Shown in pieces: positions 25,167-49,462 of a stretch of DNA of 64,000 bases. A program made the position numbers and the translations under genes. Source of the stretch: Chloroflexota bacterium (GTDB lineage Bacteria > Chloroflexota > JAHJIN01); NCBI GenBank assembly GCA_018823415.1, contig JAHJIN010000185.1:46880-110879 (forward strand), in the 5' to 3' direction. The notes beneath the pieces are model-generated. The model had not been told where the DNA came from, ran no database searches, and was given only the letters and a program-made list of their open reading frames with translations. Positions within the stretch are counted from its first letter, which is position 1; each line of letters starts with the position of its first letter.

Positions 25167-25190
25167 CATCCTGCAAGAGAGGTGTTTGCC

Positions 25191-25700
25191 ATGAAAACCC
25201 AGCGCGACATCGCGTCGTTTGTGCTGCGCTTTACCCAGGAGCTGTGGCAGGACCCCCAGGGCGAGCCGCACATCCAGTGGCGCGGGCACATTCGCCACGT
25301 CCAGGGGGACGAGGAGGCCCGGTTCACCGAGTTTGCCGAGGCCGTGGCCTTTATGCAGCGCTACCTGACGCAACTCACGCAGGGTTCCATCAACGCGCTG
25401 CCGGGAGGGGGGACCGTGGACCAGGAAAAGGTGCTCCAGGAAAGCTTTAAACTGTGGGAAGAATTCGCCGCCGGCTATACCAACGCCGTGTTCGAGGCCA
25501 TGGACCGCACCATCAAGCAGTCCGAGTCGTTCCGGCAGCAGATGGACGAGTCCGTGCAGCGCGCGCTCGAATCGTGGCAATTGCCGGCCCAGGCGGACCC
25601 AGGGCAAGTTGTGCAAGCCCTGAACGATTTGCAGGCGCAGGTCCAGGCCCTGGCCGCCCGGGTGAACGACCTGGAAAAGAGCCTGGAGGCGGGAAAGTGA
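25191..25700 (+). CDS. hypothetical protein; unknown N-terminal domain fused to a phasin-like coiled-coil C-terminal half
   Basis: The C-terminal half (EKVLQESFKLWEEFAAGYTNAVFEAMDRTIKQSESFRQQMDESV...LNDLQAQVQALAARVNDLEKSL) is paralogous to the 26853 and 27150 proteins. Confidence 0.7.
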   Translation: MKTQRDIASFVLRFTQELWQDPQGEPHIQWRGHIRHVQGDEEARFTEFAEAVAFMQRYLTQLTQGSINALPGGGTVDQEKVLQESFKLWEEFAAGYTNAVFEAMDRTIKQSESFRQQMDESVQRALESWQLPAQADPGQVVQALNDLQAQVQALAARVNDLEKSLEAGK

Positions 25701-26852: not shown

Positions 26853-27107
26853 ATGACAGAGGTACAGAGCATGATGGAAAAGAACGTCGAGATGTGGGAG
26901 CAGGCATCCGGGCAATACATGGACGCCATGTTCAAGGCCGCGGAAAAGGCCATGGAACAGTCGACCGCGTTTCAGAAGCAGGTCAACGACGCGGTGAATG
27001 CCGCGGTGAGCGCCCAGTTGGACGCCACGCTGAAGGCATTAAAGTCACTGGAGCACCAGGTAGAGACCCTGGCCGGCAAAGTGGACGATCTGCAGGGCAA
27101 GGGCTAG
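26853..27107 (+). CDS. phasin-like small coiled-coil protein (paralog 1)
   Basis: 84 aa after an AGGAGG RBS. Tandem paralog of 27150..27401 (EKNVEMWEQASGQYMDAMFKA...AFQKQV...). Sits in the PHA gene context. Confidence 0.6.
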   Translation: MTEVQSMMEKNVEMWEQASGQYMDAMFKAAEKAMEQSTAFQKQVNDAVNAAVSAQLDATLKALKSLEHQVETLAGKVDDLQGKG

Positions 27108-27108
27108 A

Positions 27109-27131
27109 GAGATAGAGACGAGAGATAGAGA
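27109..27131 (+). repeat. GAGATAGAGA-N3-GAGATAGAGA module
   Basis: gagatagaga at 27109-18 and 27122-31, immediately after the stop codon. Confidence 0.8.
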
Positions 27132-27149: not shown

Positions 27150-27401
27150 ATGGCGGAAAAGAGTATGTTTGAAAAGAATGTCGAGATGTGGGAGCGGGCG
27201 ACCAGCCAGTACATGGACACCATGTTCAAGGCGATGGAAAAGACCCTGGAGCAGTCGGCCGCGTTCCAGAAGCAAGTGACCGCAGCGGTCAATACCTCGG
27301 TCGGCGCCCAGTTCGAGGCCACGCTGACGGCCATCCGGACGCTGGAAAAGCAGGTAGAGGCACTGTCCGCCAAGGTGGACGAGCTGATCGACAAGGGCTA
27401 A
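27150..27401 (+). CDS. phasin-like small coiled-coil protein (paralog 2)
   Basis: 83 aa after a GGAGGA RBS. Clearly homologous to the preceding ORF. Confidence 0.6.
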   Translation: MAEKSMFEKNVEMWERATSQYMDTMFKAMEKTLEQSAAFQKQVTAAVNTSVGAQFEATLTAIRTLEKQVEALSAKVDELIDKG

Positions 27402-27407
27402 AGACAA

Positions 27408-27430
27408 GAGATAGAGACGGGAAATAGAGA
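27408..27430 (+). repeat. GAGATAGAGA-N3-GAAATAGAGA module
   Basis: 27408-17 and 27421-30. Same 13-bp register as at 27109. Confidence 0.8.
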
Positions 27431-27514
27431 TAATGGGGCAAAGAGGCAAGGTGATGAGTGACCTTGTCTCGTTGCCCATTTAACGACGCAGCACACGACA
27501 AACCAGGAGATGAC

Positions 27515-29128
27515 ATGAGCGACCAAATGAACCTGATGGCCGCGCTGGGCAAGGTGCAGGAGGCCAACCTGACCGCCGCCGCGCGCGCCTGTAAGCTGAC
27601 CGCCAACGCCGCCGCGCAACTGTGGGGCTTGCCGGCTCCCTGGGGCGAGGTCGTGCCGCCGGACAAGCGTTTTCGCGACGATGCCTGGGGCGAGTATCCG
27701 GCCACCGACTGGTTGCGGCAGGCCTATCTCATCGCTGCCCGGTGGATGCTGGACCTGGCCGATGGGTGGGAGTCGCTGGACCCGGCCATCCACCGCCAGG
27801 CCCGGTTCTGGACGCAACAGGCCGTGGACGTGGCAAGCCCGGCCAATTCCCCGCTGACCAACCCGGTGGTCCTGCGCGAGACCGCTCGCACCGGCGGGGC
27901 CAACCTCGCGCGGGGTGCGCGCAACCTGCTCGCCGACGCGCGCCGGGGGCGCATCAGCCAGGTCGCCGAGGGGGCATTCACCGTCGGCCGGGACCTGGCC
28001 ATCACCCCCGGCCAGGTGGTCTATCGCAACCCCCTCATCGAGCTGATCCAGTACGCCCCGGTCACCAACAGGGTCCACGCCACGCCCCTCCTGATCATCC
28101 CGCCGTGGATCAACCGCTACTATGTGATGGACCTGCGGCCGGCGAACTCGCTGTTCAAATATCTGGTGGACGCCGGGTTCACGCTGTTCGCCATCAGTTG
28201 GAAGAACCCGGGCAGCGACTTGCGGAACCTGGACTGGGAAGACTATATGGAGCAAGGCCCGCTGGACGCGCTGCGCGTCGTCCGGGCCATCACCGGCGCG
28301 GAGCACGTGAACGCGGCCGGCTATTGCGTGGGCGGCATCCTGCTGGAGACGGTCCAGGCCCATCTGGCCGCTACCGGCGACACTTCCATCGCCAGCGCCA
28401 CGTATTTCACCACGCACCTGGACTTTTCTCACGCTGGCGACATGGCCGTCTTTCTTAACGAGCCGAGCCTGTTGTTCCTGGAGTGGCTGATGAACGCCAG
28501 CGGCGGGTACCTGGACGGCCGGAACCTGGCGGCCACGTTCAACATGCTGCGGGCCAACGACCTGATCTGGGAATACGTGGTGAACAACTATTGGCTGGGC
28601 CAGGAACCGCCGGCCTTTGACCTGCTCTACTGGAACGGCGACGGGACACGGGTGCCGGAGCGCGTGCACGCGTTTCTGCTGCGCAACCTGTTCCTGGAGA
28701 ACCGGCTGCTGACGCCGGGCGGCCTGCGGGTCAAGGGGACCGACCTGGACATGCGCCGGATCACCGCCCCCATCTATGCCGTGGCCGGGACCGAGGACCA
28801 CATCGTCCCCTGGCCGGCGGCGTACAAGCTGCGCGAACAGGCCAGCGGCCCGGTGCGCTTGATCCTGGCCGAGGGCGGCCACATCGGCGGGATTATCAAC
28901 CCGCCGGCGGCCAAGAAACGTGGCTATTGGCTCAACGAGGGCGCGGCGAGCGGTACGGACGCGGAGGCGTGGCGGGCCGGCGCCACGCGCCACGCCGGCA
29001 GTTGGTGGGATGACTGGGCGGCCTGGATGCGGGATCAGTCCGGCGAGCCGGTGCCGCCGCCAACGCTGGGCAGCGCCGAGTTCCCGCCGCTGGCAGCCGC
29101 CCCGGGCACGTATGTGTTGGAGCAATAG
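27515..29128 (+). CDS. phaC: class I-like poly(3-hydroxyalkanoate) synthase
   Basis: ATG after AGGAGA. PhaC_N-like DKRFRDDAW, lipase box AGYCVGG. ...DHIVPW... and a C-terminus typical of PhaC. Confidence 0.85.
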   Translation: MSDQMNLMAALGKVQEANLTAAARACKLTANAAAQLWGLPAPWGEVVPPDKRFRDDAWGEYPATDWLRQAYLIAARWMLDLADGWESLDPAIHRQARFWTQQAVDVASPANSPLTNPVVLRETARTGGANLARGARNLLADARRGRISQVAEGAFTVGRDLAITPGQVVYRNPLIELIQYAPVTNRVHATPLLIIPPWINRYYVMDLRPANSLFKYLVDAGFTLFAISWKNPGSDLRNLDWEDYMEQGPLDALRVVRAITGAEHVNAAGYCVGGILLETVQAHLAATGDTSIASATYFTTHLDFSHAGDMAVFLNEPSLLFLEWLMNASGGYLDGRNLAATFNMLRANDLIWEYVVNNYWLGQEPPAFDLLYWNGDGTRVPERVHAFLLRNLFLENRLLTPGGLRVKGTDLDMRRITAPIYAVAGTEDHIVPWPAAYKLREQASGPVRLILAEGGHIGGIINPPAAKKRGYWLNEGAASGTDAEAWRAGATRHAGSWWDDWAAWMRDQSGEPVPPPTLGSAEFPPLAAAPGTYVLEQ

Positions 29129-33256: not shown

Positions 33257-33556
33257 TCAGCCGACGTGTGAAGGTCCAGCAGTACAGTCGCCTGCGGTGC
33301 CCCCCAAGCCGAACTCGCACTCCCAGTGATAATACGTGGTCATCCCTGAGAGACATGTAAAACCCGCGTTTGACCCGCCGGCGCAGTCTCCCGCGTTTGG
33401 CCCGGTGGTGCAGGCAGCATCATAAGCCGGGGTGGTGCCGGATCCGCAGACTCCCTGGAACGTAGGTGATGTGCCAGGCACGCACGACAAAGGCCCCTGT
33501 CCGGCCGCCCGCGCCCGCGCGCTCAAGTCCATCACCTTCGGTTTCTCGTACCGCAT
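33257..33556 (-). CDS. Cys/Gly-rich precursor-like peptide B (99 aa)
   Basis: Internal ATG 33556 after CAGGAGGC. MRYEKPKVMDLSARARAAGQGPLSC, then a divergent 7-Cys tail. Confidence 0.7.
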   Translation of the reverse strand: MRYEKPKVMDLSARARAAGQGPLSCVPGTSPTFQGVCGSGTTPAYDAACTTGPNAGDCAGGSNAGFTCLSGMTTYYHWECEFGLGGTAGDCTAGPSHVG

Positions 33557-33631
33557 GTTCGCCTCCTGTGGTTCGATGAATGGCGTCGCGCCTGATGGGG
33601 CGGTCCAGTCCCGGCAACCGGGGCCATGCAT

Positions 33632-33860: not shown

Positions 33861-34157
33861 TTATATTGGACCTGGTCCTGAAGTACAGAATTCTATGACA
33901 TTTGCGTCCGTTCCGCCGACACACGAGTAATTGCCGCCCCCGGACCCGATCCGGCAATCGTAGGGAGAGTTCCCACCTGCGCAGGGGCCAACTCCTGGAC
34001 CGCCGTCAGGGCCAGCATTGCAAGGGTACGAGGCGCTGGGGGTGCCTCCCCCCGAACAGCTTGCATCGCTCGAGCCAAATAAACATCCCAATGGCCACTG
34101 GCCGGTGACCCGGGCACTGGCGCTCAAGTCCATCACGACGGGTTTCTGGTAACGCAT
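33861..34157 (-). CDS. Cys/Gly-rich precursor-like peptide C (98 aa)
   Basis: Internal ATG 34157 after CAGGAGAAAG. MRYQKPVVMDLSASARVTGQWPLGC, then a divergent 7-Cys tail. Confidence 0.7.
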   Translation of the reverse strand: MRYQKPVVMDLSASARVTGQWPLGCLFGSSDASCSGGGTPSASYPCNAGPDGGPGVGPCAGGNSPYDCRIGSGGGNYSCVGGTDANVIEFCTSGPGPI

Positions 34158-34223
34158 GGTCTTTCTCCTGATGTTGATATGCCGGTGCCCCCTGGCGTTC
34201 ACGGCTGGAACCCGGCCACTTCC

Positions 34224-34354: not shown

Positions 34355-35119
34355 ATGCGCTTAAAAGACCGAGTCGTGCTCATCACCGGCGGGGCGGCCG
34401 GCATCGGCCGGGCCACCGCCGAGCGTTTCGCCGAGGAAGGCGCCATCATTGTGCTGTGCGACCTGATGGAGGAAGCCGGCCGGGAGGCTGCCGCTGGCCT
34501 GGGGCCGGACGCGGCGTTCTACAAGGTGGACGTGACCAACCGCCAGGCCGTCCAGGAATGGGCCGACGCCGTGTTCGCCCGCTATGGCCGCATCGACGTG
34601 CTGGTGAACAACGCCGGCGTCCTCCGCGACGGCCAACTGGTCAAGTTCAAGGAAGGCCAGGTGGTGGGCCAGATGCCGGAACGGGATTTCGACCTGGTCA
34701 TCGCCGTCAACCTCAAGGGCGTGTTCAACTGCACCCAGGCCGTGGCCCCGTATATGATCCAGAGCGGCGGCGGCGTGATCCTCAACGCCTCGTCCGTGGT
34801 GGGGCTGGACGGCAACTTTGGGCAGACCAACTATGTCGCCACCAAGTCCGGCGTCATCGGCATGACCAAGGTGTGGGCCCGGGAGCTGGGCCGCTACAAC
34901 ATCCGGGTCAACGCCGTGGCCCCGGGCTTTACCCTCACCGAGATGGTGCGCCAGATGCCCGAAAAGGTGCTGGATGGCATGAAGGCCCGCACGCCCCTGG
35001 GCCGCCTGGGCGAGCCGCGCGACATCGCCAATGCCTACCTGTTCCTGGCATCCGACGAGGCCAGTTATGTCTCCGGCGCGGTGCTCCGGGTGGACGGCGG
35101 CATTGTGGTGGGGACGTGA
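34355..35119 (+). CDS. fabG: SDR 3-oxoacyl reductase (FabG / acetoacetyl-CoA reductase PhaB-like)
   Basis: ATG after [15 protein letters not shown] cofactor motif, NNAG, and YVATKSG (YxxxK). Confidence 0.85.
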
Positions 35120-35128
35120 GAGAGACTG

Positions 35129-35188
35129 GAGATAGAGACATGAGATAGAGTAGTACACAAAAGACTCTCTATCTCCCCTCTCTATCTC
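35129..35188. repeat. perfectly symmetric palindrome made of two GAGATAGAGA modules and their inverted copies
   Basis: gagatagaga 35129-38, gagatagag(t) 35142-51, 14-nt centre (35152-35165), tctctatctc 35166-75 and 35179-88. Likely hairpin, terminator or attenuator between fabG and phaC. Confidence 0.8.
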
Positions 35189-35212
35189 TATCCCGCCCAC
35201 CGAGAGTGTGGC

Positions 35213-36988
35213 ATGGACGACCGATCCGCAAATCCCGCAGCTTCCTCCCCCTGGCGCGCCTGGCTGGAAAACCCCTGGACCCAGGCGTGGGTGGGGTGGC
35301 AGCGGCTGCTGTGGGCCAGCCATCCCCTGAGCCGGCTGGTGCCGCTGGACGTGGACGAGGTCTATCGCGCGTTTGCGGTCCTGGGCGACGACCTGGCGGC
35401 AAACCCGGACAAGCTCGTGGCCCGCACCGCCGACCTGCTGCGCAGCTATAACGAGCTGGCGCTGTGGAGCCTGCGCCGGGGCCTGGACGCCGAGCCGGCC
35501 GACGAGCTGGTGACGCCGGACAAAAAGGACCGCCGCTTCCGGGATGAGGCCTGGGCCAATAACCTGGTTTTCAGCGTGCTCAAACAATCGTACCTGGTGC
35601 TGTCTCAATGGCTGGTGGCGGCCTCGGAGGACGTGGAGGGCCTGGAGCCGCTGGAGCGCCAGCGGACCAACTTTTACATGCGCCAGTTCGTGGACACGGT
35701 CAGCCCCACCAATTATCTGTTGACCAACCCCACGGCCCTGCGCGAGACGCTGGACACCGGCGGCGAGAACCTGCGCCGGGGCTTGCAGAACCTCCTGGAC
35801 GACCTGGAACGCGGCGAGGTCAAGATCGCCGGCAAGGAGCAGTTTACCGTGGGCCAGGACCTGGCCCTCACGCCGGGGCAGGTGATCTATCGCAACGACC
35901 TTATCGAGCTGATCCAGTACGCGCCGGCGGCCGAGCAGGTCCACGCCGTGCCGATGCTCATCATCCCACCCTGGATCAACAAGTACTATATCATGGACGT
36001 CCGGCCCGGGCGCAGCATGGTGGAGTACCTGGCACAGCAGGGGTTCACGGTGTTCCTGATGAGCTGGCGCAACCCCACCCCGGCCATGCAGGACCTGAGC
36101 ATGGAAGACTATTTACGGCTCGGCCCCCTGAGCGCGCTGGAGGTGGTCCAGGCCATCAGCGGATCATCTCGCGTCAACTGGATCGGCTACTGCCTGGGCG
36201 GCACGCTGCTGGCCATCACCCTGGCCTACCTGGCCGCCATTGGGGACGATTCGACCAACTGTGCCACGTTTTTCACCACCCTGCAAGACTTTTCCGAGGT
36301 GGGCGAGACCTCGCTGTTCGTCACACCCGAGTGGATCACCGAGGTGGAGCGGCGCATGGACGACAAGGGCTACCTGGACGGGCTGGAACTCAGTTCAGTG
36401 TTCAAGCTCATGCGCGCCAATGACCTGATCTGGGGCTTTGTGGTGAACAATTATCTGCTGGGCCAGGAGCCCATGCCCTTTGACCTGCTGTATTGGAGCG
36501 TGGACCGCACGCGCATGCCCCGGGCCATGCACTCGTTCTACCTGCGCAACATGTACGTGGAGAACAACCTGGTCCAGCCGGGCCGCCTGGAATTCCTGGG
36601 CCAGGGCATCGACCTGGGCCGAGTCCGCTGCCCCAGCTATGTGGTGGCGACGGTGGAAGACTATATCGTGCCCTGGCCGGCCGCGCACAAGGCGGCTGCG
36701 CTTTTCTCTGGTCCCGTGCGCCGCGTCCTGAGCGCCGGCGGTCATCAAACCGGCATCATCAACCCGCCGTCGGACCGGGTCTTTTACCTGACCAACGAGT
36801 CAGACACGGCCGATGCGGACGCTGACGAGTGGCTCCAGTCTGCCACGCGCCACGCCGGTAGCTGGTGGCCGGACTGGATGGCCTGGCTGGGCGAGCAGTC
36901 GGGGGAAAAGCAGGCACCCCCGTCGATGGGCAACGAGGCGTATCCGCCGCTGGCGGCCGCGCCGGGCACGTACGTCTTGGAGGAATGA
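35213..36988 (+). CDS. phaC: class I-like poly(3-hydroxyalkanoate) synthase (second copy)
   Basis: DRRFRDEAW, lipase box IGYCLGG, DYIVPW. Collinear with the 27515 protein. Confidence 0.85.
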   Translation: MDDRSANPAASSPWRAWLENPWTQAWVGWQRLLWASHPLSRLVPLDVDEVYRAFAVLGDDLAANPDKLVARTADLLRSYNELALWSLRRGLDAEPADELVTPDKKDRRFRDEAWANNLVFSVLKQSYLVLSQWLVAASEDVEGLEPLERQRTNFYMRQFVDTVSPTNYLLTNPTALRETLDTGGENLRRGLQNLLDDLERGEVKIAGKEQFTVGQDLALTPGQVIYRNDLIELIQYAPAAEQVHAVPMLIIPPWINKYYIMDVRPGRSMVEYLAQQGFTVFLMSWRNPTPAMQDLSMEDYLRLGPLSALEVVQAISGSSRVNWIGYCLGGTLLAITLAYLAAIGDDSTNCATFFTTLQDFSEVGETSLFVTPEWITEVERRMDDKGYLDGLELSSVFKLMRANDLIWGFVVNNYLLGQEPMPFDLLYWSVDRTRMPRAMHSFYLRNMYVENNLVQPGRLEFLGQGIDLGRVRCPSYVVATVEDYIVPWPAAHKAAALFSGPVRRVLSAGGHQTGIINPPSDRVFYLTNESDTADADADEWLQSATRHAGSWWPDWMAWLGEQSGEKQAPPSMGNEAYPPLAAAPGTYVLEE

Positions 36989-37416
36989 TAGAGATGGGAG
37001 ATAGAGATAGGGATGGGGGTCAAGTTCGAGCGGCTGGAGACATGGCAGCGGGCGATTGACTTTGCCAACGAGATGTTTGACATCGCGGACGCGCTGCCCC
37101 AACGGCACCAGTTCTCACTGGGCGAGCAACTGCGAAGGGCTGCTCTCAGCATCCCCACCAACATCGCTGAGGGGACCGGCCGAGACAACCCCCGGGAATC
37201 CCGCTATTTCTATCGTATCAGCAAAGGCTCGCTATACGAATGCGTGAGTTTGCTGGTGATGTTTGGCAAGCGCGGACACCTGGAGCGTGATGCATATCAG
37301 CAGCATCGAGCCGAGGCCGACGAACTCGCCTCCATGATCACCGGCCTCATCCGCGCCCAAGGTAGAGACAGAGACAAAAGATAGAGATCTCTCTATCTCT
37401 ATCGCCCATCTCTATC
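36987..37416 (+). mobile_element. inverted-repeat-bounded cassette carrying a four-helix-bundle ORF (IVS-like architecture)
   Basis: Left arm GATAGAGATGGGAGATAGAGATAG (36987-37010). The reverse complement of the right arm (37393-37416) is GATAGAGATGGGCGATAGAGATAG, a 23/24 match. Confidence 0.45.
37013..37384 (+). CDS. four-helix-bundle protein (23S rRNA intervening-sequence protein family)
   Basis: ERLETWQRAIDFANEMF...SLGEQLRRAALSIPTNIAEG...FYRISKGSLYEC are family hallmarks. Confidence 0.8.
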   Translation: MGVKFERLETWQRAIDFANEMFDIADALPQRHQFSLGEQLRRAALSIPTNIAEGTGRDNPRESRYFYRISKGSLYECVSLLVMFGKRGHLERDAYQQHRAEADELASMITGLIRAQGRDRDKR

Positions 37417-37433
37417 CTATTTGAGGAGATCTC

Positions 37434-39890
37434 ATGAACCCACAAGAGCTATACAGGCAAAAACACCTCTCCATCCCCGAGGCGGTCTCACTGGTGCATT
37501 CGCATCAGACCATCGTGGGGGCGATGGCGGCGTCCGAGCCGCCGGGCCTGCTGGGCGAGCTGGGTCGGCACAAGGACCGGCTGGAAGACGTGACGGTGTG
37601 CGTCTGCCTGCCCATGCGGCATTATGACTTTGTGCTTGAGCCCGAGATGGCCGGGCACTTTTTCGTGGAGAACTGGTTTTACGGCGCGCCGGACCGCGAG
37701 GTGCATCCCCAGGGCCGCACCTCCTACATCCCCAACAACCTCCACGCCGCCGCCCGGGGCAAGCTGGCCGCGCTGGGCAATCACCTGGACATTTTCTGGG
37801 GCACGGCCACCCCACCGGACAAGCGTGGGTTCATGTCCCTCTCGCTGGGGCTGGTCATCGAAAAGCAGATCATGGAAGCCGCCGACATGGTGGTGCTCGA
37901 GATCAACGAGAACCTGCCCTGGACTCTGGGCGATACCCAGGTGCACATTTCGGAAGTGGACGCAGTGGTAGAGAACCACGTGCCCCTGTTCGAGCTGCCC
38001 CCCGGGCCGTCCGCCGACTGGGAGCGTGCCATTGGCGGCTATATCGCTGAACTCATTGAGGACGGTGCCACGCTCCAACTCGGCATCGGTGGCATTCCCA
38101 ATGCCATCGCCGCGTTCCTGATGGAGCGGCGCGACCTGGGCGTCCACACCGAGATGTTTACCGACGGCATGGTGGACCTGTACGAGGCCGGCGTCATCAC
38201 CGGCCGGCGCAAAACCCTGTGGAAGGGCAAGATGGTGGGGGCCTTTGCCCTGGGCACTCGCAAGCTCTATGATTTCATGGACAACAACCTGTGTGTCGAG
38301 TTCCAGCAGGGCTATGTCACCAACGACCCTTATGTCATCTCCCGGAACCACAAGATGGTGAGCGTGAACACGGCCCTTCAGGTGGACCTGTACGGCCAGG
38401 TGTGCTCGCAGAGCATTGGGGCGCGGCATTATAGCGGCACCGGTGGCCAGCTCGACACGCACCGGGGCGCGCAGATGTCCCCCGGCGGGCGTGGAATCAT
38501 TGCCCTACGGTCCACGGCCCGGAAAGGCACCGTCTCCACCATCGTCCCCATGTTGAGCGAGGGCGCGGGCGTGACGGTGCCCAGCCAGGACATAGACACC
38601 GTCGTCACCGAGTATGGCGTGGCCGAGCTCAAGGGCCGCAGCGTCAAGGACCGCATGGAGGCGTTGATCCGGGTGGCGCACCCCGACTTTCGGCCCTGGA
38701 TCCGCGAGGAAGCCGAGCGATTGAACATCGTGCCGCGCCTGGTGGTGCCGGGTTACGAGCTGACCAAACCCACTCTCAAAGCCACCGCGCCCGGCGTCAC
38801 CGCCGGGTCCATCAAGCTGGGCACTTTTTGCGACCTGTCCGGTCCCAACGCTGCCATTGGCATGGCCGCATTCCGGGGCTATTCCACGTATTACGAGTAC
38901 GTGAACCACTGGGGCGGCGTGCACGGTCGGCAGATCGAGCTCGTCGTCAAGGACGATGGCTTTGATCCTACGCGCACCCGGCTGGCGGTGATGGAACTGG
39001 TCACGCAGGACGAGGTGTTTGCCGTCGTCAACCCGTTGGGCACGCCCACCAACCTGGCCGTGCTGGACTATTTGTTGGAAAAGCAGATCCCGGTCATCTC
39101 GCCGCACAGCGGGGTGTCGGCCTGGTCGGCGCCGCTCAAGCCCACCTATTTCGCGCTCCAGCCTTCGTACCACGTGGAAGGGCAGATATTGGCCCAGTAC
39201 GCGCTGGACGAGTTGGGGGCCCGGCGCATTGCTGTGCTGGCGGTGAACGACCGTTTTGGGCAAGAAGGTTCCACGGCGTTCCTGGGCGAATTGGCGCAGG
39301 CCGGCGTGCGGCCGGTGCTCACGCTCACCCATCCCATCCTGGAATCCACCCCCGACCGGTGGATAGCCGAGCTGGCCGCCCACGAGCCGGACCTGGTGCT
39401 GCTGTACACCTATGTCAAGCCGGCCGCCGACCTGCTGCGCGCGGCGCAAGTCGCCGGGTTCACCCCGCAATGGCTGGGCAGCTATGTTCTCTCCGGGCCA
39501 GACCTGTTCCAGTTTGCCGGGGCCGAGGCCGCCAACGGCGTGCGTACCACCAGCTACCCGGCCGGGCCGCGCGACCATCGCGGCGAAACCCTGTTCCAAA
39601 AGCTCATGGCGCGTGGCGCCCCGTGCGACACCGAAATGGCCGGGCCGCACAGCCGTATTGGCTACGCGGCAGCGCAACTGGTGGTAGAGGGCCTCAAGCG
39701 CGCCGGACCGGACCTCACCCGCGATGGCTTGATCCAGGCCCTGGAAAGCTTGCAGGACTGGACCGGTGGCCTGCTGCCGCCCATCAGCTATAGCTCGACC
39801 GACCATCGGGGGTTGACGGCGCTGGCCCTGCAACGGGCACGGAACGGACAATGGCTGGTGGAAAACGGATTGCTCAAACTGCGCGAGTGA
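37434..39890 (+). CDS. acetyl-CoA hydrolase/4-hydroxybutyrate CoA-transferase domain fused to a type I periplasmic-binding-protein (LivK-like) domain
   Basis: Residues 1 to about 430 are the CoA-transferase family (...GIGGIPNA..., ...EYGVAELKGRS...). From IKLGTFCDLSGPNAAIGMAAFRGY onward it is Peripla_BP_6-like. No signal peptide, single uninterrupted frame. Confidence 0.75.
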   Translation: MNPQELYRQKHLSIPEAVSLVHSHQTIVGAMAASEPPGLLGELGRHKDRLEDVTVCVCLPMRHYDFVLEPEMAGHFFVENWFYGAPDREVHPQGRTSYIPNNLHAAARGKLAALGNHLDIFWGTATPPDKRGFMSLSLGLVIEKQIMEAADMVVLEINENLPWTLGDTQVHISEVDAVVENHVPLFELPPGPSADWERAIGGYIAELIEDGATLQLGIGGIPNAIAAFLMERRDLGVHTEMFTDGMVDLYEAGVITGRRKTLWKGKMVGAFALGTRKLYDFMDNNLCVEFQQGYVTNDPYVISRNHKMVSVNTALQVDLYGQVCSQSIGARHYSGTGGQLDTHRGAQMSPGGRGIIALRSTARKGTVSTIVPMLSEGAGVTVPSQDIDTVVTEYGVAELKGRSVKDRMEALIRVAHPDFRPWIREEAERLNIVPRLVVPGYELTKPTLKATAPGVTAGSIKLGTFCDLSGPNAAIGMAAFRGYSTYYEYVNHWGGVHGRQIELVVKDDGFDPTRTRLAVMELVTQDEVFAVVNPLGTPTNLAVLDYLLEKQIPVISPHSGVSAWSAPLKPTYFALQPSYHVEGQILAQYALDELGARRIAVLAVNDRFGQEGSTAFLGELAQAGVRPVLTLTHPILESTPDRWIAELAAHEPDLVLLYTYVKPAADLLRAAQVAGFTPQWLGSYVLSGPDLFQFAGAEAANGVRTTSYPAGPRDHRGETLFQKLMARGAPCDTEMAGPHSRIGYAAAQLVVEGLKRAGPDLTRDGLIQALESLQDWTGGLLPPISYSSTDHRGLTALALQRARNGQWLVENGLLKLRE

Positions 39891-49374: not shown

Positions 49375-49462
49375 AGTTGTTGTGTTCAAGGGCAAACCCG
49401 TAGCGATACGGGGACGCAAAGCCACGGATCTGATGATGGTCAGATGGCCGGGTTGCCGCAAC
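49375..49462 (+). promoter_or_regulatory. candidate c-di-GMP-I (GEMM-I) riboswitch aptamer
   Basis: AAGGGCAAACC-CGUA-GCGA-UACG-GGGACGCAAAGCC...GGCCGGGUUGCCG. This matches the conserved GEMM-I core, including a GNRA-capped P1b-like hairpin. Confidence 0.75.

Follow-up and report, generated by a model that had tools for sequence, protein, structure and literature searches.

We analyzed a 64-kb stretch of a Chloroflexota genome, hereafter the window, in which a small gene for a four-helix-bundle (4HB) protein lies between inverted repeats in the spacer of a polyhydroxyalkanoate (PHA) operon. The arrangement was first pointed out in an earlier note that a reader had made from the sequence alone, and its claims were then checked computationally. 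Upstream of the spacer is phaC, which encodes a 591-aa PHA synthase (35213-36988, + strand; Pfam PhaC_N, E = 8e-66), and downstream is a gene for an 818-aa fusion of an acetyl-CoA hydrolase/transferase with Peripla_BP_6 (37434-39890, + strand; Pfam), hereafter the CoA-transferase gene. The 4HB gene itself (123 aa; 37013-37384, + strand) is co-directional with both neighbors. Together, gene and repeats form a 430-nt cassette with a 26-27-bp terminal stem, which fills the spacer from the phaC stop codon to the CoA-transferase ribosome-binding site.

The repeat search and folding delimited two arms on the + strand. The 5′ arm (36987-37013) is a purine-rich pair of GAGATAGAGA-type units with a 13-nt period, and the 3′ arm (37390-37416) is pyrimidine-rich, consists of TCTCTATCTC units and is complementary to the first. 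Each arm is 27 nt long; they are 93% (25/27) complementary and 376 nt apart, so that the 24-nt arms of the earlier note (23/24 matching) stand as the core of a longer pair. As the note had also described, the 5′ arm overlaps the phaC stop codon (TGA, 36986-36988, the last base being the end of that open reading frame (ORF)): the overlap is 2 nt, the first base of the arm falls inside the stop codon, and its last base is the A of the 4HB start codon. On the other side, 17 nt separate the end of the 3′ arm from the CoA-transferase start, with the ribosome-binding site GAGGAG just beyond the arm. A single real ORF, 37013-37384, is enclosed, and a further + oriented repeat pair (37365-37387, + strand; repeat search) encodes its C-terminal RDRDKR and stop codon, both as the note had stated. 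This internal pair is a direct repeat of the 5′ arm, 380 nt apart, and can also pair locally with the 3′ arm, forming the near side of a hairpin.

The fold that the earlier note had suggested as a check was computed for 36975-37430. The minimum free energy structure (-188.9 kcal/mol, z = -4.7) is closed by the long-range arm stem. The arm duplex alone reaches -45.0 kcal/mol, compared to about -22.3 to -22.8 kcal/mol for the competing local hairpin between the C-terminal repeat and the 3′ arm. Neither a promoter-like site nor a + strand terminator-like site was found in or beside the cassette. An Rfam scan of the window returned no rRNA; its sole match was a cyclic di-GMP (c-di-GMP) riboswitch, and the hairpins match no RNA family.

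The enclosed protein matches the complete profile of PF05635 (23S_rRNA_IVP; positions 1-106 of 106, E = 1.5e-29, 102.8 bits against a cut-off of 33.8) and also TIGR02436 (99.9 bits, cut-off 24). These scores bear out its earlier identification as a member of the four-helix-bundle family named for intervening sequences (IVSs) of 23S rRNA. Residues 5-117 match PDB 2GSC (XCC0516; E = 1.5e-14), a solved four-helix-bundle homopentamer. Residues R42, S46, N50 and E53 lie within LGEQLRRAALSIPTNIAEG, and among 34 homologs S46, N50 and E53 are invariant and R42 nearly so (≥90%). They correspond to the PF05635 core motif GxxRxxxSxxxNxxE (Lin 2006 / PMC3936711). Judged by its sequence, the window protein is a bona fide PF05635/TIGR02436 member.

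Compared to cassette homologs, the ratio of nonsynonymous to synonymous substitution rates (dN/dS) is 0.05-0.18, with synonymous sites saturated. The 4HB protein is therefore functional and under strong purifying selection, and the sampled cassette copies are old. As a query, the protein matched 14,348 clusters at 50% identity (E up to 0.001); within the 64-kb window, tblastn found no second 4HB gene.

The arm unit is a repeat in its own right. With at most one mismatch allowed, the window has 15 copies of GAGATAGAGA where 0.88 would be expected, a count that none of 100 shuffles reached, and the exact 8-mer GATAGAGA is restricted to four spacers of the 64 kb, all of them in two PHA clusters. 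The spacer directly after the fabG stop and before phaC holds an ORF-less, or empty, palindrome (35118-35194, + strand; -44.1 kcal/mol, z = -4.5). The earlier note had derived this palindrome from the same module as the arms, and we agree. Its loop has ACAAAAGA in common with the 3′ end of the 4HB ORF, and in a relative, L003 (L-numbers label the loci of relatives), a 4HB cassette stands directly after the fabG stop, though the downstream gene there is a different one. Two further spacers carry a solo + oriented repeat pair. One pair (27105-27131, + strand) begins at the stop of the first of two tandem 83-84-aa ORFs, lies between them and has no inverted partner; the other (27408-27430, + strand) follows the second small ORF, upstream of phaC paralog 1, and is likewise unpaired.

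Finding the repeat in four PHA spacers, in two of them without an inverted partner, raised the idea of a PHA-spacer mark that encloses a gene incidentally. Put more generally, GAGATAGAGA hairpins could be operon punctuation, that is, host marks in spacers akin to repetitive extragenic palindromic (REP) sequences that serve mRNA processing, stability or translational coupling, with the 4HB gene an ordinary, vertically inherited gene that is enclosed because every spacer of these operons would carry the repeat. The scarcity of the repeat argues against this: it occupies four spacers in 64 kb, and none of the 232 control segments from 4HB loci described below is bracketed by it.

We found 244 relatives of the window 4HB protein at E up to 1e-10. 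The four closest homolog clusters (74-84% identity) are located at fabG-4HB-KASIII or class III phaC-4HB-biotin carboxylase junctions. All have GAGATAGAGA units upstream, up to and into the start codon, and TCTCTATCTC units downstream, and at these five loci (the window and the four clusters) + oriented units also occur in the last 4HB codons. To this we added a protein-selected sample of 80 metagenome loci (proteins 44-86% identical), of which 69 had enough flank; a few of the loci are duplicates from different samples, and the 69 are thus not entirely independent. A flanking inverted repeat scoring at least 13.5 was present at 33/69 of these 4HB genes, compared to 0/232 random 355-nt segments from the same loci.

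The arm units of relatives occur as the variants GATAGAG, GCTAGAG, GTTAGAG, GACAGAG and GTGAGAG. A typed GNNAGAG arm could be assigned on both sides in 52/76 cassettes, and in 46/52 its type was that of the nearest protein neighbor. GATAGAG arms persist at loci where the protein is only 47-55% identical to that of the window. The earlier note had proposed to look for the same arms around other 4HB genes and would have counted armless copies or relatives against itself. Neither was the outcome: arms are present in relatives and around other copies of the family, with about one-third of the sampled members lacking detectable ones. For punctuation by host marks, the bracketing of 33/69 4HB genes in unrelated operons, by arm variants that follow the protein clade, is hard to accommodate.

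The same design recurs with other repeats in cyanobacteria, where plasmids carry the 4HB gene between cas6 and cas4 and between cas10 and cmr3. In 2/4 cyanobacterial cases, a purine-rich tandem array and its inverted complement flank the gene (GGGAAAAGGG..., GGAGATAAGGAGATAG), and arms were found at cas10-4HB-cmr3 in Picosynechococcus. That quite different repeats show the same purine-rich/inverted pyrimidine-rich arrangement around cyanobacterial 4HB genes again argues against a host punctuation mark. A third case, L217 1890-2460 (Pseudanabaena galeata plasmid, cas6/cas4), has direct arrays, (GCTAAAA)n upstream and (GCCAAAA)n downstream. We take these heptamer arrays to resemble cyanobacterial short tandemly repeated repetitive (STRR) sequences, and STRR arrays may be linked to PF05635 genes.

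Orthologous sites were found in several states of occupancy. At L215, the order fabG-phaC-CoA-transferase is the same as in the window (72%, 62% and 74% identity), the spacer between phaC and the CoA-transferase gene measures 33 nt without repeat or gene, and no palindrome follows fabG either. At L212 and L213, fabG is followed by the CoA-transferase gene without the element. At L210/L211, whose CoA-transferase is 86% identical, the 5′ arm is kept, the 4HB protein is truncated to 84 aa after KGSVYECVSLL, and the 3′ arm is gone. L131 has an intact cassette at the junction type of the window with strongly expanded repeat arrays: at L131 2881-3470, the 4HB start follows some 90 nt of GATAGA-type units, and a 19-nt unit is repeated about five times at the 3′ end. 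This expansion shows that the arm arrays vary in unit number, as do the heptamers of the Coxiella IVS. The comparison of phaC/CoA-transferase junctions proposed in the earlier note thus yields an unoccupied (L215), a truncated (L210/L211) and a filled (L131) version.

Two relatives with an Hdr-like operon, L090 and L121, differ in occupancy at one and the same junction. With identical boundaries (TGTGA immediately before GATAGAGA at one end, GCGAGGAGTA at the other), the arms enclose a 4HB gene in L090 and a loop of 12 nt in L121. At another junction, the 4HB gene of L090 is reduced to about 30 codons, followed by foreign low-GC DNA, and L121 is intact. We note that at L090 4503-4973, inside intact arms, most of a 4HB gene has given way to a 156-aa hydrophobic ORF in low-GC DNA with no Pfam match; cassette loops might be capable of taking up foreign DNA. 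Filled and empty alleles with identical boundaries, and truncated or disrupted 4HB remnants that persist inside arms, are both difficult to reconcile with incidental enclosure of a vertically inherited gene. They support the proposal of the earlier note that the cassette has filled and empty versions: in relatives the gene is accompanied by its arms whichever genes adjoin it, hairpins without an ORF are dispersed, and the state of orthologous sites ranges from filled through decayed and empty to unoccupied.

The dispersal is evident in GTDB species genomes, where the GAGATAGAGA-type pattern was found at more than 119 loci, mostly of Chloroflexota among the matches listed; the groups represented among these matches are Anaerolineae, Thermoflexales, Caldilineales, Promineifilaceae and Ardenticatenaceae. 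A metagenome-assembled genome (MAG) of Ca. Hadersleviella danica has at least 14 repeat loci on 13 contigs, and two other Anaerolineae MAGs have at least six each. Among the matches listed, the spacing from + to - clusters is bimodal, with 56 pairs at ≤79 nt (mode about 31) and 8 pairs at 364-434 nt. A 4HB ORF lies inside 7/8 of the wide-spaced pairs listed, although these loci were chosen by the repeat alone. This clustering of spacer lengths at the size of the ORF is a further point against punctuation with incidental enclosure.

The loop of the short Ca. Hadersleviella hairpins, about 27 nt long, is conserved and occurs in both orientations; the hairpins are therefore copies of an element and did not arise independently. 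At L009, a 107-nt loop starts with ATGGGGTTCAAG, the 4HB start. An origin of empty forms by internal deletion is supported in some cases, namely the L009 remnant, L121 compared to L090, and the ACAAAAGA loop after fabG. A different content was seen at L050 1-447 (a Chitinophagaceae MAG contig), where GAGATAGAGA arms 382 nt apart have no 4HB gene between them; a second inverted repeat, low in GC and with arms of about 70 nt, is nested in the loop and may reflect either the insertion of a further small element or a chimeric assembly. In IMG/VR, 60 viral contigs (L220-L279), many from sample 3300045988, match the strict repeat pattern, 59 of them with a solo array. We considered carriage by phages and rejected it: IMG/VR contains no close 4HB relative, and the repeat there is mostly solo without an inverted partner.

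Based on Pfam or RefSeq annotation, the operons that harbor cassettes are unrelated and serve housekeeping or defense. The flanking genes encode Hdr-like Fe-S oxidoreductases, OTCase and an amino-acid kinase, a NuoF-like protein and FdhD, PGK and GAPDH, or a carboxyltransferase and an enoyl-CoA hydratase; further cassettes lie between cas6 and cas4, between cas10 and cmr3 and, at three loci, between NAD synthase and a methylase. The 4HB gene is co-directional with both neighbors in about 20 cassettes, with one neighbor in three, and antisense to both in none, an orientation that fits expression by read-through of the host operon. An Rfam scan of 20 relatives' loci without obvious flanking ORFs found no rRNA and only one group II intron domain.

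These contexts bear on a further explanation, in which a PHA regulator would recognize the repeat as its operator or as an RNA target, with the 4HB protein as a phasin- or PhaR-like granule or operon factor. All four motif-bearing spacers of the window do lie in its two PHA clusters, and the closest 4HB homologs are all in PHA/lipid operons. However, 4HB proteins 72-75% identical to that of the window, with the same arms, occur in the Hdr-like Fe-S oxidoreductase operon, and more distant 4HB genes in arginine, glycolysis, NAD and cas operons; the fabG-phaC-CoA-transferase order of L215 lacks both repeat and gene; and the repeat is spread over the GTDB loci and the 13 Ca. Hadersleviella contigs described above. 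The dispersal of the repeat over many genomes and the presence of the cassette in many unrelated operons led us to reject a PHA operator or regulon motif, and we consider PHA-specific regulation very improbable.

The closest known counterpart is the IVS of 23S rRNA with an S23p/PF05635 ORF (Coxiella burnetii, Leptospira, Brucella; PMC4990558, with Ralph & McClelland 1993 cited there), which has a protein of the same family in its loop. The Coxiella IVS is 428 nt long and has a 28-bp stem that is cut by RNase III, an S23p ORF, and AGAAGA plus 3-4 GACAGAT repeats before the ATG, with a repeat number that varies between strains (PMC4990558). The window cassette is alike in size (430 nt), in its terminal stem (26-28 bp across the two) and in a 5′ arm of GA-rich tandem repeats up to the start codon (GACAGAT there, GAGATAGAGA with GACAGAG variants here). 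Both show variable repeat-unit number between copies, between strains there and at L131 here, and both have ORF-decayed versions. The view of the earlier note, that the gene-in-a-stem-loop design of 23S rRNA IVSs is used between protein-coding cistrons, therefore holds in protein family, size, stem and GA-rich 5′ arm.

The two also differ. The rRNA IVSs are located in helix 25/45 of 23S rRNA, whereas the window cassette lies in an intercistronic mRNA spacer, and its arms also belong to a repeat family that is scattered over genomes and includes members without an ORF. In Coxiella, the ORF is in decay and probably not translated (PMC4990558), in contrast to the strong purifying selection seen here. 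RNase III cleavage has been shown for the rRNA IVSs and would be expected for the window cassette by analogy. As the cassette lies outside rRNA, we describe it as working like an IVS and do not place it among the rRNA IVSs.

Elements from outside rRNA share some of these features. REP/REPIN elements and their RAYT transposases, reportedly described by Nunvar (2010) and by Bertels and Rainey (2011), are likewise short imperfect palindromes in many intergenic or intercistronic copies, with a gene bracketed by its own repeat. Here, by contrast, the bracketed gene encodes a 120-aa four-helix bundle without HUH/Y1 transposase motifs, the arms are tandem sub-repeat arrays and not a single REP sequence, and no Y1_Tnp/RAYT domain was found among the annotated neighbors of the window cassette or in the relatives' loci. 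Miniature inverted-repeat transposable elements (MITEs) and their autonomous partners resemble the cassette family in having filled and short versions with common terminal inverted sequences and unrelated interiors, and in presence/absence polymorphism at orthologous sites. They differ in that no transposase was seen here, no target-site duplication is recognizable, and the ORF is always co-oriented with host transcription.

Avd, the accessory protein of diversity-generating retroelements (DGRs; PDB 4DWL; PMC10053308), has a homologous four-helix-bundle fold, belongs to a homologous family and partners with a reverse transcriptase in its action on nucleic acid, which shows that the fold can work on RNA or DNA. 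Among Pfam families, Avd resembles PF05635 (PMC10053308), and the window protein might itself be an Avd acting with a nearby reverse transcriptase, the repeats being features of a template region (TR) or variable region (VR). Yet the gene stands alone between metabolic cistrons: no reverse transcriptase or TR/VR pair was found in the relatives' loci or among the Pfam-annotated genes that flank the cassette within about 3-5 kb on each side, and the repeats are short tandem units, not a TR/VR pair of about 100 bp. We give a DGR accessory role next to no credence.

PF05635 genes outside 23S rRNA have been noted before. In the passages retrieved, they are reported in cas operons, as cmr2-4HB-cmr3 and others (PMC3936711), and in insertions at several sites of 16S/23S rRNA of the candidate phyla radiation (CPR), alongside ORF-less versions (PMC11270868). 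As far as these passages go, the family is inserted between co-directional genes or in rRNA genes, as here, and they make no mention of flanking inverted tandem-repeat arms or dispersed hairpins. Full-text searches of the literature, subscription-only papers excluded, gave no description of repeat-armed PF05635 cassettes in mRNA operons.

Taken together, we think it likely that 36987-37416 is an IVS-type cassette in an intercistronic spacer, belonging to a dispersed family of filled and empty repeats, co-transcribed with its host operon and closed by a stem that is probably RNase III-sensitive. Probably lacking a promoter of its own, the cassette would depend for its expression on transcripts that run through the host operon. 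In the polycistronic RNA, pairing of the arms would produce the 26-27-bp stem (-45 kcal/mol) and bury the 4HB start codon; ribosomes terminating at the phaC stop, inside the 5′ arm, could transiently open this stem. By analogy to the 28-bp stem of 23S rRNA IVSs, the arm stem may be a substrate of RNase III, whose cleavage would separate the phaC, 4HB and CoA-transferase messages. Since the 5′ arm has a direct repeat in the last ORF codons, slippage or recombination between these two copies might turn filled cassettes into empty hairpins, and filled and empty forms could interconvert by recombination through their shared arms. Judging by its presence/absence and dispersal, the cassette may be mobile. 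For IVSs, it was long ago proposed that they were mobile elements whose ORF served mobility (mentioned in PMC4990558).

Several observations weigh against this reading. No transposase, integrase, reverse transcriptase or homing endonuclease was found in the cassette or within about 10 kb, and no target-site duplication is recognizable when the filled window junction is compared to the unoccupied L215 junction, whose flanks are too diverged for a firm judgment. With dS saturated between the sampled copies, no recent transposition is documented. The closest copies are all in PHA/lipid neighborhoods, where the identity of the 4HB proteins (74-82%) is similar to that of FabG (70-78%), so that long vertical residence with local rearrangement fits as well as mobility, and the NAD synthase-4HB-methylase position is conserved across its three loci. 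The Ca. Hadersleviella loops, by eye, are unlike the ORF ends, implying that not all empties are simple deletion products. To these are added the sampled family members without detectable arms, about one-third.

A 5′ arm is matched only slightly better by the 3′ arm of its own locus than by those of other loci (17.9 vs. 16.5; permutation p = 0.016), and stem mismatches read in the sense orientation are about as often of the A.C type (31) as of the G.U type (29), with no wobble excess that would speak specifically for selection on the RNA stem. Both findings also count against our preferred reading. Given the absence of a wobble bias, the data do not tell whether the constraint acts on RNA or on DNA. 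We rejected locus-specific co-evolution of the two arms, as the excess over cross-locus pairs is modest and the arms are mostly generic. That arms are nearly interchangeable between loci suggests that the sequence of the unit is constrained, not pairing alone.

Part of this evidence is what punctuation of host operons would lead one to expect: arms that are nearly interchangeable between loci, closest cassettes that remain in a PHA neighborhood with divergence like that of FabG, a conserved position in the NAD synthase operon, and saturated dS. Weighed together with the bracketing, remnants and paired alleles set out above, that account strikes us as unlikely, and the IVS-type cassette remains the reading that we prefer.

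In a bolder reading, the 4HB protein would itself be the trans-acting factor of the element: as an oligomer, it would recognize the GA-rich arm units, as RNA or single-stranded DNA, and maintain, protect or mobilize the cassette and the ORF-less hairpins. We put this forward tentatively and regard it as unlikely. The proposal is suggested by the conservation of the arms even where protein identity falls to 47-55% (dS being saturated among closer pairs), by their near-interchangeability between loci, by arm variants that track protein clades (46/52), by purifying selection on the protein, and by the homolog Avd, which works on RNA with a reverse transcriptase.

Other features of the window lie outside the cassette. 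The CoA-transferase/Peripla_BP_6 fusion is kept at 65-86% identity in very many Anaerolineae, always in PHA/lipid-type operons; it joins a solute-binding fold to a cytoplasmic CoA-transferase. In relatives L210/L211, genes for radical-SAM/SPASM, PqqD and ScmC proteins precede the CoA-transferase operon. The two tandem 83-84-aa ORFs (26853-27107 and 27150-27401, + strand) are helical and lie upstream of the second phaC (27458-29128); from their context alone, they look phasin-like. Upstream of them, ORF 25182-25700 has a weak PHA-granule-protein match (E = 2.5e-4). Two paralogous Cys/Gly-rich small ORFs on the - strand (about 33257-33560 and 33861-34160), both starting MRY(E/Q)KP(K/V)VMDLSA, look like precursors of ribosomally synthesized and post-translationally modified peptides. 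Neither the 83-84-aa ORFs nor the Cys-rich peptides matched a significant NCBIfam family. The riboswitch found by the Rfam scan is a c-di-GMP-I-GGC aptamer at 49381-49461 (+ strand; RF03167, 61.6 bits against a gathering score of 59).

The IVSs of 23S rRNA and their S23p ORF have been unexplained for three decades with regard to the role of the protein, mobility and the reason for the inverted repeats. The comparisons made here suggest that rRNA may be only one of the places in which a much larger family resides. The usual home of this family appears to be the spacer between co-transcribed genes; it is accompanied by matching hairpins without a gene, and one and the same site can be filled, decayed, empty or unoccupied. 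PF05635 genes in cas, PHA or metabolic operons, which have been read as functional partners, are more likely passengers. In the host operons, the long stems of the cassettes would be expected to affect the processing of polycistronic mRNA and the stoichiometry of its products. Should the 4HB protein recognize the arms, the cassettes would represent a class of small selfish elements without transposase, integrase or homing endonuclease, one that would take in the 23S rRNA IVSs, the 4HB genes of cas operons and perhaps the short tandem repeat arrays of cyanobacteria.

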